Assembly: GCF_054482595.1 (NCBI RefSeq)
Contig: NZ_CM137008.1
DNA: 64,000 nt
Reading direction: 5' to 3' (one strand)
Of the stretch, positions 14,749 through 50,749 are shown in pieces. The notes under the pieces were generated by a model. That model searched no databases and was not told where the DNA came from. It was given only the letters and a program-made list of their open reading frames with translations. Numbering within the stretch: the stretch's first letter is position 1; the number at the start of each line of letters is the position of its first letter. The position numbers were made by a program, and so were the translations under genes.

Positions 14749-15190
14749 AGTAAGTACAAAACCTATTCGTTGTATGACAAATGTCACAATTCGATCATGG
14801 ATAAATCGGGGCAAAAATGCAATGTTGTAGCACTATTTATCTCATATTATTTGAGGGTAATAACCTCACATTATCCCTGAATTAAAAGTGGTAATAATAA
14901 AACATTATTTAAGAAATATCGCATGTGGAGACACTATATTAAATATTGTCAACCTAAAGAAACTCCTAAAAACCATATTGAATGACACTTAATATAATTC
15001 TTAAAAATAGCCAATTACCGAATTGTTATCTTGCCTGCTATTCCGTTAGCTGTAACACTTCCTCCTGCATTATTGGAAAGCCAATATTCAATTACCATAA
15101 TGTCACCTTATATTCGGAAGTTAATTTCCGTAATAACCCTTTCTCATCAACGACTGCATGCTGAGAGGGTGTGAAAAATTAAACTAAATC

Positions 15191-15229
15191 AGTGTATTGG
15201 TAGCTAAAAAGCCAGGGGCGGTAGCGTGT
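15191..15229 (+). promoter_or_regulatory. JUMPStart element with ops (RfaH recruitment) site in the wza leader
   Basis: cagtg...ggtagc...agccaggggcggtagcgtg; ops core GGCGGTAGCGTG at 15217-15228. Confidence 0.8.
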
Positions 15230-19160: not shown

Positions 19161-19169
19161 CGACATCCG

Positions 19170-19280
19170 CTGTCGGATGCGATGCTGACGCATCTTATCC
19201 GACCTACCTTCACGCCGCATCCGGCAAGCAAACCAGCTCCGTAGGCCGGATAAGGCGCTCACGCCGCATCCGGCAACAGA
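19170..19280. repeat. REP/BIME cluster between wzc and wcaA
   Basis: Several REP-like palindromes (gatgcgacgc / cttatccg / gccggatgcggcgtg types). Confidence 0.65.
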
Positions 19281-19337
19281 ACCCGTAAACAAGCTTATAA
19301 ACCGGCAGAACATCTCGATACTCCGGGAGAACAACCT

Positions 19338-29652: not shown

Positions 29653-29653
29653 A

Positions 29654-29755
<102 letters not shown>

Positions 29756-29844
29756 ATGAATGCGAAACCGAGATGTAAATAACGACAAAAACAAAATTGG
29801 CCGTTTCGGTCAGGGCCAACTATTGCCTGAAAAAGGGTAACGAC

Positions 29845-32665: not shown

Positions 32666-34144
32666 ATGAGCTTACGTGAAAAAACCATCAGCGGCGCGAA
32701 GTGGTCGGCGATTGCCACGGTGATCATCATCGGCCTCGGGCTGGTGCAGATGACCGTGCTGGCGCGGATTATCGACAACCACCAGTTCGGCCTGCTGACT
32801 GTGTCGCTGGTGATTATCGCGCTGGCAGATACGCTTTCTGACTTCGGTATCGCTAACTCGATTATTCAGCGAAAAGAAATCAGTCACCTTGAACTCACCA
32901 CGTTGTACTGGCTGAACGTCGGGCTGGGGATCGTGGTGTGCGTGGCGGTGTTTTTGTTGAGTGATCTCATCGGCGACGTGCTGAATAACCCGGACCTGGC
33001 ACCGTTGATTAAAACATTGTCGCTGGCGTTTGTGGTGATCCCCCACGGGCAACAGTTCCGCGCGTTGATGCAGAAGGAGCTGGAGTTCAACAAAATCGGC
33101 ATGATCGAAACCAGCGCGGTGCTGGCGGGCTTCACTTTTACGGTGGTTAGCGCCCATTTCTGGCCGCTGGCGATGACCGCGATCCTCGGTTATCTGGTCA
33201 ATAGTGCGGTGAGAACGCTGCTGTTTGGCTACTTTGGTCGAAAAATTTATCGCCCCGGTCTGCATTTCTCGCTGGCGTCTGTGGCACCAAACTTACGTTT
33301 TGGTGCCTGGCTGACGGCGGACAGCATCATCAACTATCTCAATACCAACCTTTCAACGCTGGTGCTGGCGCGTATTCTCGGCGCGGGCGTGGCAGGGGGA
33401 TACAACCTGGCGTACAACGTGGCCGTTGTGCCGCCGATGAAGCTGAACCCAATCATCACCCGTGTGTTGTTTCCGGCGTTTGCCAAAATTCAGGACGATA
33501 CCGAAAAGCTGCGCGTCAACTTCTACAAGCTGCTGTCGGTGGTGGGGATTATCAACTTTCCGGCGCTGCTCGGGCTGATGGTGGTGTCAAATAACTTTGT
33601 ACCGCTGGTATTTGGCGAAAAGTGGAACAGCATTATTCCGGTGCTGCAATTGCTGTGTGTGGTGGGGCTACTGCGCTCCGTGGGTAACCCGATTGGTTCG
33701 CTGCTGATGGCGAAAGCGCGGGTCGATATCAGCTTTAAATTCAACGTATTCAAAACATTTCTGTTTATTCCGGCGATTGTTATTGGTGGGCAGATGGCGG
33801 GCGCAATCGGCGTCACGCTCGGTTTCCTGCTGGTGCAGATTATCAACACCATTCTGAGTTACTTCGTGATGATTAAACCGGTTCTTGGTTCCAGTTATCG
33901 CCAGTACATCCTGAGTTTGTGGCTGCCGTTTTATCTCTCGTTGCCGACGCTGGTGGTCAGTTATGCGCTGGGCATTGTGCTGAAAGGGCAACTGGCGCTG
34001 GGGATGCTGCTGGCGGTGCAAATAGCCGCGGGCGTGCTGGCGTTTGTGGTGATGATTGTGCTGTCGCGCCATCCGCTGGTGGTGGAAGTGAAGCGTCAGT
34101 TTTGTCGCAGCGAAAAAATGAAAATGCTTTTACGGGCGGGGTGA
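32666..34144 (+). CDS. wzxC: Colanic acid repeat-unit flippase (Wzx/PST family)
   Basis: 492-aa polytopic membrane ORF. Confidence 0.9.
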   Translation: MSLREKTISGAKWSAIATVIIIGLGLVQMTVLARIIDNHQFGLLTVSLVIIALADTLSDFGIANSIIQRKEISHLELTTLYWLNVGLGIVVCVAVFLLSDLIGDVLNNPDLAPLIKTLSLAFVVIPHGQQFRALMQKELEFNKIGMIETSAVLAGFTFTVVSAHFWPLAMTAILGYLVNSAVRTLLFGYFGRKIYRPGLHFSLASVAPNLRFGAWLTADSIINYLNTNLSTLVLARILGAGVAGGYNLAYNVAVVPPMKLNPIITRVLFPAFAKIQDDTEKLRVNFYKLLSVVGIINFPALLGLMVVSNNFVPLVFGEKWNSIIPVLQLLCVVGLLRSVGNPIGSLLMAKARVDISFKFNVFKTFLFIPAIVIGGQMAGAIGVTLGFLLVQIINTILSYFVMIKPVLGSSYRQYILSLWLPFYLSLPTLVVSYALGIVLKGQLALGMLLAVQIAAGVLAFVVMIVLSRHPLVVEVKRQFCRSEKMKMLLRAG

Positions 34145-34187
34145 GTTGTTGTTTTCGGTTCCGACAACGGTTGCCGGGTGCAGCGTA

Positions 34188-34358
34188 AAACGCCTTATCC
34201 ATCCTACGGTTCTGTGCTCGGGTCTTGTAGGCCTGATAAGACGCGTCAGCGTCGCATCAGGCACTGAATGCCGGATGCGGCGTGAACGCCTTATCCGGCC
34301 TACGGTTCTGTGCTCGGGTCTTGTAGGCCTGATAAGACGTGCCAGCGTCGCATCAGGC
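34188..34358. repeat. BIME: two near-identical ~72-bp REP-containing units in tandem
   Basis: Unit at 34191-34262 and unit at 34287-34358 differ at only a few positions. Confidence 0.75.
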
Positions 34359-34419
34359 AAAAAACGGCAACGAACACAACAAACACAGCCTCACCTGGCA
34401 TCAAATTTATGAGGAAAAA

Positions 34420-45228: not shown

Positions 45229-46244
45229 AAGTTGATGCAGTAATCTTATGGGTAGATGGTAATGATCCAAAATGGCAGGAAGAATACAATAAATATTGTA
45301 AGCCGGCCTCTCGAATTGAGAATGGTGTACAAAGATATAGAGATTGGGATACACTACGATATGTAATTCGTGGAATAGAATATAACCTTCCTTGGATTGA
45401 CAAAATACATTTTGTGACATGTGGTCAAAAGCCAAGTTGGATGGTTGGATATCATCCAAAACTCAATTTTGTACATCATAACGATATTTTTGAGAATGAT
45501 ACATTTTTACCCACATTTAATTCAAGTGCAATAGAGTTAAATCTGTCAAGGATAAAGGGATTAAGTGAGAGGTTTATATATTTTAATGATGATATGCTTG
45601 TGCTTAAAAACACTCCTCTTCAGAGGTTTTTTGTAAATGATTTACCGGTGGATTTTTTAATTGAAGCTTTCCCACGGCGTGGGTTATTGTATGAAAAAAT
45701 ACGTTCCAACTCAACTTGGGTTTCAATGATAAATAATTGCACTTCGCTCATAAATAGAGTGTATCACAAGAATAAATATATACAGGATAATCGTAATTTA
45801 TATTATAACATGAACTATGGACGACATGTCATTGCTAATGTACTGGCGTCCCCTTTTAAGCAGTTTTTGGCTTTTAAACACTATCATCATCCTCAAGCAT
45901 ATCTTAAAAAGACATTACAATCCGTTGAGCGTGAGTTCCCAGTGGAGTTTAACTTAACATGCAAATCTAGATTCCGAGAACATGATAATATCTCACAGGC
46001 GTTGTTTAGATATTACCAATTGGTAACTGGTAGTTTTTATCCGTGCTATTATAATGATCATGCCTGTGTTAATGTAGTAAATAAAAAATCTGCAAGCCAG
46101 TGTATTGAAGCTCTTCATCAAAAACGATTTGTGTGTATAAATGATGAGATTAATGACGACTTAGATGATAGTTCAATTTTAATAAATGATATAATTAAAG
46201 AGTTGGATTTGATTCTTCCAAATAAATCAAGTTTTGAGATCTAA
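45225..46244 (+). CDS. Stealth-family hexose-1-phosphate transferase (glycosyl-phosphotransferase)
   Basis: 339-aa ORF; Stealth CR1-like DAVILWVDGNDPKW, CR2-like TLRYVIRGIEYNLPWIDKIHFVT, CR3-like YFNDDM. Confidence 0.75.
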   Translation: MKVDAVILWVDGNDPKWQEEYNKYCKPASRIENGVQRYRDWDTLRYVIRGIEYNLPWIDKIHFVTCGQKPSWMVGYHPKLNFVHHNDIFENDTFLPTFNSSAIELNLSRIKGLSERFIYFNDDMLVLKNTPLQRFFVNDLPVDFLIEAFPRRGLLYEKIRSNSTWVSMINNCTSLINRVYHKNKYIQDNRNLYYNMNYGRHVIANVLASPFKQFLAFKHYHHPQAYLKKTLQSVEREFPVEFNLTCKSRFREHDNISQALFRYYQLVTGSFYPCYYNDHACVNVVNKKSASQCIEALHQKRFVCINDEINDDLDDSSILINDIIKELDLILPNKSSFEI

Positions 46245-46250
46245 ATTAAT

Positions 46251-47069
46251 ATGAATTCGTTTGATGAGTTTAATGTGCTACTATCTCTTTATAAAAATGA
46301 GAGCCCCGATAATCTGGATGCGTGTTTTCAAAGCATAAGCACTCAATCTTTGAAAAGATTTAAAATAATACTTGTCATAGATGGTCCTATTTCTTCTGAG
46401 TTAAATGAGGTTGTCGGAAAGTGGAAGTCACTATTACCTATTAAAATTATCAATCTCGAACGTAATGTTGGCTTAGGTAATGCTTTAAATATAGGTTTGA
46501 AATATTGCAGTTGTGATTATGTGTTTCGTATGGATACAGATGATATTTGTCATCCGGATAGGTTTTCCATACAATTTAGTTATCTGAGGAAACACCCCGA
46601 TATTGATTTGCTTGGTGGACAGATTGTAGAATTCCATGAATGCATAGAGGAGCCTAACGGTATGCGGTTAGTACCTTCTAAATATGAGGAAATTCTTCAG
46701 TATTGTAAACTTAAAAACCCATTTAATCATATGACAGTTGTGTTTAAAAGAGAGAGTGTACTTAAGGTCGGTGGATATAAACATCATTTATATATGGAGG
46801 ATTATAATCTTTGGCTTCGTATGATATCAATTGGTTGCAAAGTGGAAAATTTAGATGATGTGATTGTTTTTGCCCGAACAGACGTGAATTCATTAATGAG
46901 ACGTAGAGGGTGGCAATATGTTAAAAGTGAATGGAAATTAGCACTGTTAAAAATAAAGTTAAGAATAAATAATCCTATTGTTTCTTTATCTGTTTTTATC
47001 CTCCGATCTATACCTCGATTATTACCTATTATGTTGATTCGTAGAATTTATGCCCACAACCGCAAGTGA
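46251..47069 (+). CDS. Glycosyltransferase family 2
   Basis: 272-aa ORF; FNVLLSLYKNE ... VIDGP ... MDTDD motifs. Confidence 0.8.
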   Translation: MNSFDEFNVLLSLYKNESPDNLDACFQSISTQSLKRFKIILVIDGPISSELNEVVGKWKSLLPIKIINLERNVGLGNALNIGLKYCSCDYVFRMDTDDICHPDRFSIQFSYLRKHPDIDLLGGQIVEFHECIEEPNGMRLVPSKYEEILQYCKLKNPFNHMTVVFKRESVLKVGGYKHHLYMEDYNLWLRMISIGCKVENLDDVIVFARTDVNSLMRRRGWQYVKSEWKLALLKIKLRINNPIVSLSVFILRSIPRLLPIMLIRRIYAHNRK

Positions 47070-48624: not shown

Positions 48625-48650
48625 TCTGATCTAACCAACAATAAATTTAG

Positions 48651-48678
48651 GCCCGGCGTATATTGCGCCGGGCTTTTT
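48651..48678 (+). terminator. GC-rich hairpin plus T-run after gnd (gnd terminator or IS200 left-end terminator)
   Basis: gcccggcg / cgccgggc stem with 7-nt loop, then TTTTT. Confidence 0.6.
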
Positions 48679-48821
48679 GTGCACAGAAAACCCCCAGCTA
48701 GGCTGGGGGTTCCGGAAAGCTATCAGCTTTGAGCCAGTTATTAAAACCCCTTTTGATTTGTTAAAACACCTTGCGGTCTGGCAACTGCAAGTGTCAAACA
48801 AGAAATCAAAAGGGGGTCCCA

Positions 48822-49280
48822 ATGGGGAACGAAAAGAGCTTAGCGCACACCCGATGGAACTGTAAATATCACATAGTTTTTGCGCCAAAATACTGAAGAC
48901 AAGTGTTCTACAGAGAGAAACGTAGAGCAATAGGCAGTATTTTGAGAAAGCTGTGTGAGTGGAAAAGCGTACGGATTCTTGAAACTGAATGCTGTGCAGA
49001 TCATATCCATATGCTTGTGGAGAGCCCGCCCAAAATGAGCGTATCCGGCTTTATGGGATATCTGAAAGGGAAAAGCAGTCTGATGCTTTACGAGCAGTTT
49101 GATGATTTGAAATTCAAATACAGGAACAGGGAGTTCTGGTGCAGAGGGTACTACGTCGATACGGTGGGTAAGAACACGGCGAAGATACAGGATTACATAA
49201 AGCACCAGCTTGAAGAGGATAAAATGGGAGAGCAGTTATCGATTCCCTATCCGGGCAGCCCGTTTACGGGCCGTAAGTAA
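48822..49280 (+). pseudogene. tnpA: IS200 tnpA (Y1 HuH transposase) interrupted by an in-frame TGA at codon 25
   Basis: MGNEKSLAHTRWNCKYHIVFAPKY, TGA at 48894-48896, then the same frame continues through HIHMLVE (HuH motif) to the stop at 49280. Confidence 0.75.
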
Positions 49281-49361
49281 CGAAGTTGGATGCAAATGTC
49301 AGATCGTGTGCGCCTGTTAGGGCGCGGCTGGTAAGAGAGCCTTATAGGCGCATTTGAAAAA

Positions 49362-49392
49362 CCTCCGGCTATGCCGGAGGATATTTATTTTT
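49362..49392 (+). terminator. Hairpin plus T-run at the IS200-like right end
   Basis: cctccggc / gccggagg stem with 3-nt loop, followed by atatttattttt. Confidence 0.55.
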
Positions 49393-49573
49393 GCCAATTA
49401 TCTTATAGACTAAATTTCACTGCTTAATATTAACTTAATAAATATCAGCTATTCTTATAAAGAAAATCTGAATTGTTTTTCGTTGCGTTGACCATCTGAC
49501 AACGTAGCGTTAAAACTTTTAGCTCTTATCAGGATGCTAAAAACATCATGATTCACAGTTAAGTTAATTCTGA

Positions 49574-50749
<1,176 letters not shown>

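Follow-up and report, generated by a model that had tools for sequence, protein, structure and literature searches.

What is the repeated sequence that lies between wzxC and wcaK in the colanic-acid (wca) operon, how did it reach its present length, and does it do anything for the operon that carries it? We addressed these questions in a stretch of 64,000 nucleotides of contig NZ_CM137008.1 (assembly GCF_054482595.1), here called the window, and in the corresponding junctions of other E. coli and Enterobacteriaceae genomes.

The wca operon and its long intergenic gaps

A preliminary description of this DNA had placed the repeats inside an operon, with wzxC on one side and wcaK on the other, and profile matches on both flanks together with the ORFs of the wca operon bear this out. 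The upstream gene is the colanic-acid flippase gene wzxC (32666-34144, + strand, stop codon TGA at 34142-34144; NCBIfam PRK10459, 835 bits against a cut-off of 273), the downstream gene the colanic-acid pyruvyl transferase gene wcaK (34420-35700, + strand; TIGR04006 wcaK, 926 bits against a cut-off of 727), and RefSeq likewise uses the names wzxC and wcaK at a 100%-identical match. The gap between them measures 275 nt. Close to its end lies the GAGG ribosome-binding site of wcaK (34411-34414, + strand), which is unpaired in the predicted fold of the gap and falls outside all predicted stems. The entire wca operon is encoded on the + strand of the window, from the JUMPstart element at 15190 to the end of wcaM at 38322.

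Only three long gaps are found within the operon, and each of them contains REPs. The wzc-wcaA gap (19161-19337) carries two head-to-head REPs (19172-19207 and 19241-19274) with a linker of 33 nt, while the cpsB-cpsG gap (29653-29844) begins with half a z2 REP (29653-29666) directly after the cpsB stop, followed by a y REP (29674-29707), the 11-nt linker GGTTCGGGTTT and a z2 REP (29719-29754). This 11-nt linker resembles the 19-nt linker of the wzxC-wcaK array. The same REP-pair gap also holds an Rfam algC RNA motif (29791-29840, 78.2 bits, gathering score 33.8) just upstream of the start of cpsG, which codes for phosphomannomutase.

Several further features of the window were recorded. JUMPstart elements occur at 15190-15228, upstream of wza in the wca operon, and at 40845-40883, upstream of the O-antigen block (40961-47069). 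An extra ORF of 331 amino acids (38480-39475) is located between wcaM and a galF-like ORF; it gives weak matches of the NAD-dependent sugar epimerase/dehydratase type, all below the curated cut-offs, and K-12 has no gene between wcaM and galF. The gnd-ugd gap (48625-49582) is unusually long (~960 nt) and holds an Rfam STnc490 match at 48689-48812 (144 bits), and an STnc240 match is present at 61916-61990. NZ_CP033401.1 matches positions 33900-34700 at 100%, and is collinear with the window, position for position, only over ~24.5-38.4 kb. Beyond wcaM its gene content is clearly different (another O-antigen region); upstream, its gene coordinates are off by only ~1 nt, and the register was probably lost through a small indel. 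The window comes from a different strain, with which the wca segment is shared as a mosaic block. Since the two are collinear over ~24.5-38.4 kb only, genes were called from the window's own ORFs and the annotation of NZ_CP033401.1 was not transferred.

Structure and identity of the array

Self-alignment of the junction returned two copies of 75 nt (34189-34263 and 34285-34359), identical at 71 of 75 positions (95%) and spaced 96 nt from start to start; the probability of at least 71 matches in 75 by chance at one given offset is ~7e-38. The near-identical direct repeats reported earlier are therefore real. Tandem Repeats Finder described them as a single array (34172-34359, period 96, 1.9 copies, 91% matches), and the full units 34168-34263 and 34264-34359 align with a mean column identity of 94%. 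What had to be redrawn were the boundaries: rather than two units of ~72 bp (34191-34262 and 34287-34358) with a short spacer between them, we find contiguous units of 96 bp, and the presumed spacer (~34263-34284) is made up of a 7-nt tail-to-tail linker and the 5' half of the second y REP. Likewise, the array does not begin at 34188/34191 but at 34172, the unit-1 counterpart (34172-34188) being more diverged. In total, 34172-34358 contains 1.9 head-to-tail copies of the 96-bp unit.

On the + strand, which is also the mRNA strand, each unit consists of a y REP, a 19-nt linker, a z2 REP and a 7-nt linker. REP1 (34172-34207) is an inverted y-type REP with a 3' CCTAC that aligns to REP3 and is decayed, its CTTATCC..CCTAC end carrying 2 mismatches. 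It is followed by the 19-nt head-to-head linker GGTTCTGTGCTCGGGTCTT (34208-34226), read from the sequence at the position of the BIME-2 motif 'S', and by REP2 (34227-34262), which is of z2 type, starts with GTAGG and matches the z2 pattern without mismatches. The 7-nt tail-to-tail linker ACTGAAT (34263-34269, likewise read from the sequence) leads to REP3 (34270-34303), an inverted, canonical y-type REP that matches the y pattern without mismatches and whose CCTAC end is at 34303. A second 19-nt head-to-head linker (34304-34322), identical to that at 34208-34226, precedes REP4 (34323-34358), again of z2 type with a 5' GTAGG and one mismatch to the pattern; all of these coordinates refer to the + strand. 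The 7-nt linker is invariant across all multi-unit alleles. The array lies in extragenic sequence, within the gap at 34145-34419. Two ORFs that span it (34146-34412 on the + strand and 34130-34360 on the - strand) have no NCBIfam match and are made of REP sequence, and we rejected a coding reading.

The two units did not diverge evenly. In the 5' part of the y REP they differ at 6 of 22 aligned positions, one of them an indel, compared to only 4 differences in the remaining 75 positions, and the decayed first y REP is the same copy as that found in one-unit alleles. On these two grounds, a single recent duplication of one unit was rejected as the full story.

The claim that the element is a BIME composed of REP palindromes was confirmed as well. 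The strings that we take to be the y and z2 consensus, an assumption corroborated by REP325 and by dispersed genome matches, are matched here with 0-1 mismatches, and no such pattern matches are expected in shuffled sequence. REPs are imperfect palindromes of 30-40 nt; their foot bears the conserved tetranucleotide GTAG/CTAC, and their stem is interrupted by a mismatch that forms a bulge (PMC3333891). Here, the feet are given by GTAGG at 34227 and 34323 and by CCTAC ending at 34207 and 34303, and an internal mismatch is present in each REP stem in the predicted folds. Across the window, 11 REP-foot matches were counted (0.9 expected). A query containing the REPs found a median of at least 38 places per E. 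coli genome among the matches listed, including a site beside rayT.

Within this family, the array conforms to BIME-2, in which y and z2 REPs alternate in orientation (PMC3333891; PMC2817692): read along the + strand, the REPs follow one another as y (inverted), z2, y (inverted), z2, and tandem copies vary between strains (1.9 copies here, 0-6 units elsewhere). The linkers of BIME-2 elements vary in length and sequence (PMC3333891), and those of the present array are short (19 nt head-to-head and 7 nt tail-to-tail), in the places of the BIME-2 motifs S and s/l/r. BIME-1, which combines y with z1 and has a long L linker with an IHF site, was also considered and rejected, as there is no z1 and the linkers measure only 7 and 19 nt. 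The IHF consensus WATCAANNNNTTR has no match on either strand of the wzxC-wcaK gap.

At the same locus, K-12 MG1655 has a wzxC-wcaK gap of 275 nt that is collinear with that of the window. A supplementary table of a 2026 preprint (Harris et al.) lists REP144 at 2118467-2118652, in the tandem pair wzxC to wcaK, 27 nt from the wzxC stop and 61 nt from the wcaK start, and these offsets are the same in the window, as are the four REPs with their linkers. The two alleles differ at a few points: the first linker ends in GGGACCT in K-12 and in GGGTCTT in the window, and REP1 is more decayed in the window than in REP144. The feature table of the K-12 record contains no REP features, and a literature search for the name 'REP144' found nothing relevant. 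We are hence almost certain that the wzxC-wcaK element is a two-unit allele of a known BIME-2-type REP array, REP144 in K-12; as such it is an already named and catalogued REP cluster.

Unit number, an older hairpin and other genera

A query made of the flanks only matched 4,706 of 5,426 complete E. coli genomes. Gap classes were counted in 60 rows spaced evenly down the match ranking, and representatives of each class were read. As had been predicted from the repeat structure, length varies from strain to strain, and it does so in steps of ~96 bp: gaps of ~71 nt (no unit; 6 genomes), ~179 nt (one unit; 9), ~275 nt (two units; 19), ~372 nt (three units; 4), ~468 nt (four units; 5), ~564 nt (five units; 7) and ~661 nt (six units; 2) were found. 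A further 4 genomes carry an unrelated BoxC-type repeat in place of the BIME (gap ~161 nt), and 4 are odd cases, with internal deletions of 145 nt and 359 nt, a divergent 17-nt junction and a match to the wcaK flank only. Clonal groups are uniform, with two units in each of four K-12 derivatives and one unit in each of four O157:H7 genomes. Array length is polymorphic between lineages, not hypervariable. The polymorphism of this gap is already in the literature: in 2011, O157 strains were described as differing in REP number at wcaK-wzxC, and the gap was suggested as a recombination junction (PMC3158064). We also observed that in NZ_CP073994.1 (446-606 of the extracted locus) the gap of 161 nt holds a BoxC/PIT-type repeat together with a ribosome site of the GAGGTCATA type, as in other genera, and that in NZ_CP041433.1 (601-617 of the extracted locus) the 17-nt wzxC-wcaK junction has flanks that are only ~79% identical. 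Both junctions suggest imported or deeply diverged wca segments.

Long arrays hold duplicated blocks of two units; in the Nissle array, for example, a period of 193 (3.0 copies, 97%) beats a period of 96 (5.9 copies, 93%). A 46-nt query centred on the 19-nt linker found 1-4 places per genome (median 1), which shows the linker to be specific to the locus. Because the linker is locus-specific and two-unit blocks are duplicated, the array appears to grow and shrink locally by whole units or unit pairs, not by new insertions of dispersed copies. Unequal recombination between units, or slippage during replication, may account for their gain and loss, with strand exchange through RayT possibly assisting; BIME-2 copy number is known to be variable, and RayT catalyses REP recombination in vitro (PMC3333891).

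In the predicted folds, REP2, REP3 and REP4 form stable hairpins (-21.9, -21.3 and -19.6 kcal/mol; z -5.4, -4.3 and -4.8), and that of REP1 is weak (-8.6 kcal/mol, z -0.85). As an alternative, the REP2-REP3 pair is predicted to fold as a single hairpin of 81 nt (-52 kcal/mol), and the whole wzxC-wcaK gap has a predicted folding energy of -130.8 kcal/mol (z -6.6). In this capacity to fold as one long hairpin, the inverted REP2-REP3 pair resembles the REPINs that are linked to RayT (TnpA_REP), and the E. coli rayT gene is itself flanked by y/z2 BIME-2 elements. Unlike in that system, RayT is not encoded in the window, the changes in the array look like local duplication or deletion of units rather than transposition, and a flanking 8-bp direct repeat, as described below, is not expected from a mechanism of the IS200/IS605 type.

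An older hairpin, whose extended stem takes in the wzxC stop codon, surrounds the BIME array, which occupies its loop. The arms of this hairpin, 34146-34163 and 34365-34382 (both + strand), form an inverted repeat of 18 nt with 83% complementarity, and the stem is extended at its base by GGTGAG (34140-34145, + strand), which includes the stop codon and pairs with CTCACC (34390-34395, + strand) in the folds of both the full gap and a BIME-less allele (L004). BIME-less alleles have the form GTTGTTGTTTTCG-GTTCCGGCAA-CGAAAACAACAAC, in which GTTGTTGTTTTCG and CGAAAACAACAAC make a perfect 13-bp stem; with the GGTGAG/CTCACC extension, L004 is predicted to fold at -29.5 kcal/mol (minimum free energy, z -4.1). 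In Escherichia whittamii, the same hairpin encloses a single z2 REP.

An 8-bp direct repeat (CGRCAACG) brackets the BIME. The left copy (34162-34169, + strand) is CGACAACG in the window and CGGCAACG in other strains, the right copy (34365-34372, + strand; the first 8 nt of the right hairpin arm) is CGGCAACG, and the two are identical at 8 of 8 positions in Nissle and ZH193. Comparison of alleles revealed that exactly one copy is kept in four empty alleles, which belong to three flank haplotypes. One empty allele has a rare left flank in common with a one-unit allele, and another has the right flank of filled alleles. A single ancient empty lineage is harder to reconcile with these mixed flanks than precise deletion that recurred between the two 8-bp copies, or recombination. 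The 8-bp repeat might also be a target-site duplication, an origin at odds with the IS200/IS605-type chemistry that has been proposed for RayT.

The mixed flanks also bear on the proposal that the array is mainly a break and join point at which segments with O-antigen and colanic-acid genes are exchanged between lineages. In its favour, the same rare left-flank haplotype occurs with no unit and with one unit, the right flank of filled alleles occurs in an empty one, and a shift in similarity exactly at the wcaK-wzxC gap, with REP-containing indels at junction points, has been described (PMC3158064). This evidence is correlative, however: breakpoints would be seen in whichever intergenic gap lies close to the O-antigen hotspot, and the authors of that study themselves found only a few cases. 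Serving as a recombination junction would moreover be a consequence rather than a function and is compatible with the other readings. As the main explanation of the array we regard it as quite unlikely.

With a degenerate pattern for the WcaK N-terminus, we retrieved 119 loci, of which 112 had a measurable junction. The wzxC-wcaK gap in these Enterobacteriaceae has a median length of 30 nt and is 40 nt or shorter in 73 of the 112; the ancestral junction was therefore short. Host-type REPs are present in 9 of the longer gaps, among them those of Citrobacter amalonaticus, another Citrobacter, a gut Enterobacteriaceae and Salmonella enterica arizonae, as well as E. coli E69 and E. whittamii, where the element is the same as in the window. 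BoxC/PIT-type repeats occupy 15 junctions, and several others contain small hairpins. The junction was thus colonised many times independently by structured repeats, in many genera. The BoxC motif family has been described as intrastrand-triplex repeats (PMC4666352); its members sit at the same wzxC-wcaK junction as the BIME in ~7% of the sampled E. coli and in 15 other enterobacterial species, but they form an unrelated sequence family (blocks CCCTCACCC, CCCTCTCCC and GGGAGAGGG) and are not REPs. Since alleles with no unit, with a 17-nt junction and with BoxC-type repeats coexist in E. coli, and since most junctions elsewhere are short, the BIME at wzxC-wcaK is dispensable.

Possible roles of the array

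The preliminary description held that a BIME inside an operon can stabilise mRNA or partly terminate its transcription. This activity is drawn from the literature on REPs in general and on REP325, and would extend to the present locus by analogy. According to the mechanism we propose, the array would be co-transcribed with the wca operon, as all wca genes lie on the + strand downstream of JUMPstart and neither promoter-like (sigma-70) nor intrinsic-terminator-like sites are present on either strand of 33600-34900. REP hairpins in the transcript would then block 3'->5' exonucleases and protect the cpsG-wcaJ-wzxC segment, and they could pause or partly terminate transcription, in part through Rho, before wcaK-wcaL-wcaM. 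In this way the array would set the ratio of upstream to downstream expression, as has been measured for REP325. An intrinsic (Rho-independent) terminator was rejected, as a GC-rich hairpin with a U run is not found and REP4 is followed by AAAAAA.

Intra-operon REPs with a proposed protective role are known from malE-malF and hisJ-hisQ, where REP hairpins likewise stand between cistrons of one transcript and have been proposed to protect the upstream mRNA from 3'->5' decay (references in PMC3158064); those are different loci, and the likeness rests on the literature. The closest counterpart is REP325 (naRNA1-6) between yjdM and yjdN. Like the wca array, it consists of alternating y/z2 tandem units of ~100 bp between co-oriented genes of one operon, and both arrays are matched by the same Rfam family (RF02564). 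REP325 has 6 units with a period of 100, compared to 2 units with a period of 96 in the wca array, and the linkers (12 and 17 nt in REP325, 7 and 19 nt here) are unrelated. Read in the direction of the operon, REP325 has the order [GTAG-y, 12 nt, z2-CTAC, 17 nt] x 6 and the wca array [y-CTAC, 19 nt, GTAG-z2, 7 nt] x 2, which means that the latter is inverted relative to REP325. The measured functions belong to REP325 alone.

REP325 stabilises the upstream yjdM mRNA and reduces downstream yjdN ~8-10-fold; its dependence on Rho is partial, occurs only with the long array and is not detectable in fragments of 2-4 hairpins (2026 preprint, Harris et al.). Genome-wide, tandem gene pairs that contain REPs have a higher upstream/downstream ratio, with large scatter (same preprint). 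Given that the wca array is of the same family as REP325, in the same tandem context and probably likewise co-transcribed, a modest exonuclease barrier combined with partial attenuation is the favoured form of such a role. Two indirect hints concern Rho. The C/G ratio, 0.53 ahead of the array, reaches 1.7 over the 78 nt that follow, a weak hint that would agree with Rho loading. REP144 is also listed as touching a NusG-dependent region of in-vitro Rho binding, but on the strand antisense to wca (2026 preprint).

Several observations speak against a role at the RNA level. The allele has only three good hairpins, a number at which REP325 fragments (2-4 hairpins) had no detectable Rho dependence; the array is inverted relative to its operon when compared with REP325; and the element is dispensable across strains and species. 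The JUMPstart/RfaH antitermination signal of the operon should in addition blunt Rho-dependent attenuation. In the DESeq table of the 2026 preprint, wzxC and wcaK have baseMean values of 36 and 91, in an almost silent operon and with counts that are not length-normalised; an attenuator should give a ratio biased towards the upstream gene, and these values do not. Weighing these points, we would not go quite as far as an even chance that the array has a measurable role at the RNA level, as stabiliser and partial attenuator.

The serious rival to such a role is that the array is a nearly neutral passenger, a selfish or tolerated repeat in one of the rare long gaps of the operon whose length shifts by slippage or recombination without a selected effect on wca. 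The coexistence in E. coli of 0-6 units with 17-nt and BoxC-type alleles, junctions of at most 40 nt in 73 of 112 Enterobacteriaceae and the decay of REP1 all agree with it, as do wcaK read counts that are not below those of wzxC in one dataset and the inconsistent effects of REPs on reporters and mRNA half-lives genome-wide in the literature. On the other hand, the same architecture has large measured effects at yjdM-yjdN, and a segment of 190 nt that folds at ~-130 kcal/mol within an mRNA is unlikely to be without consequence. The independent colonisation of the junction by structured repeats in many genera could reflect either tolerance or benefit. Overall, we consider the passenger explanation unlikely, though to be taken seriously.

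The match to RF02564 raises the alternative that the REP2-REP3 pair is transcribed as a naRNA4-like, HU-binding noncoding RNA that would serve to bridge cruciforms and to compact the chromosome. This Rfam family was defined on y/z2 units of REP325 (PMC4550694), and its model matches 34230-34300 (REP2, linker and REP3) with 79.7 bits on the - strand, above the gathering score of 59.5. On the transcribed strand we rejected membership, as the match on the + strand of the operon reaches only 55.4 bits; the asymmetry is explained by the inverted orientation of the wca array relative to transcription in comparison with REP325, on which the model was built. The passing match is antisense to the operon, both strands lack a promoter-like site, the model would be matched by any y/z2 pair, and REP325/naRNA4 itself gave no measurable nucleoid compaction, with REP-REP contacts not seen (2026 preprint). 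The match reflects shared REP sequence and is no evidence of an antisense RNA, and we give the naRNA4-like alternative next to no credence.

An element acting at the level of DNA is also conceivable, in that a BIME-2 might serve as a site of DNA gyrase binding and cleavage and relieve supercoiling across the operon, which is 20 kb long and under strong induction by Rcs. BIME-2 elements are reported to bind gyrase more strongly than BIME-1 and to be cleaved by it in vivo (cited in PMC1475751 and PMC2817692), and REPs are present in all three long gaps of the wca operon. Against this stand the strains and species that lack the element, and we found no gyrase data for the wzxC-wcaK locus. A gyrase site is accordingly very unlikely in our judgement.

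Taken together, we lean slightly towards the explanation that combines a BIME-2 allele of REP144, local dynamics of its units and a role in cis at the RNA level. A bolder extension, which we think decidedly unlikely, is that unit number (0-6 and stable within clones) is a heritable dial for the attenuation of wcaK-wcaL-wcaM and the protection of transcripts ending with wzxC. If this were true, longer arrays would bring stronger, partly Rho-dependent attenuation and stronger protection, lineages would differ in the balance of the finishing enzymes (WcaK pyruvylation, WcaL and WcaM) relative to the flippase, and the amount or the pyruvylation of colanic acid would differ between lineages.

As a catalogued REP cluster of a well-described family, the element has little importance beyond annotation. 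Three small additions come from the present analysis. The allelic series spans 0-6 units and holds evidence that arrays grow in blocks of units; the array is nested in an older hairpin and flanked by an 8-bp repeat; and in other genera this junction has been colonised repeatedly and independently. The natural series of alleles (0-6 units, BoxC and the 17-nt junction) in otherwise similar operons is well suited for testing the claim of a stabiliser and attenuator whose effect depends on length, and a comparison of empty with filled alleles, which have the 8-bp repeat at their flanks, could shed light on the gain and loss of BIMEs.
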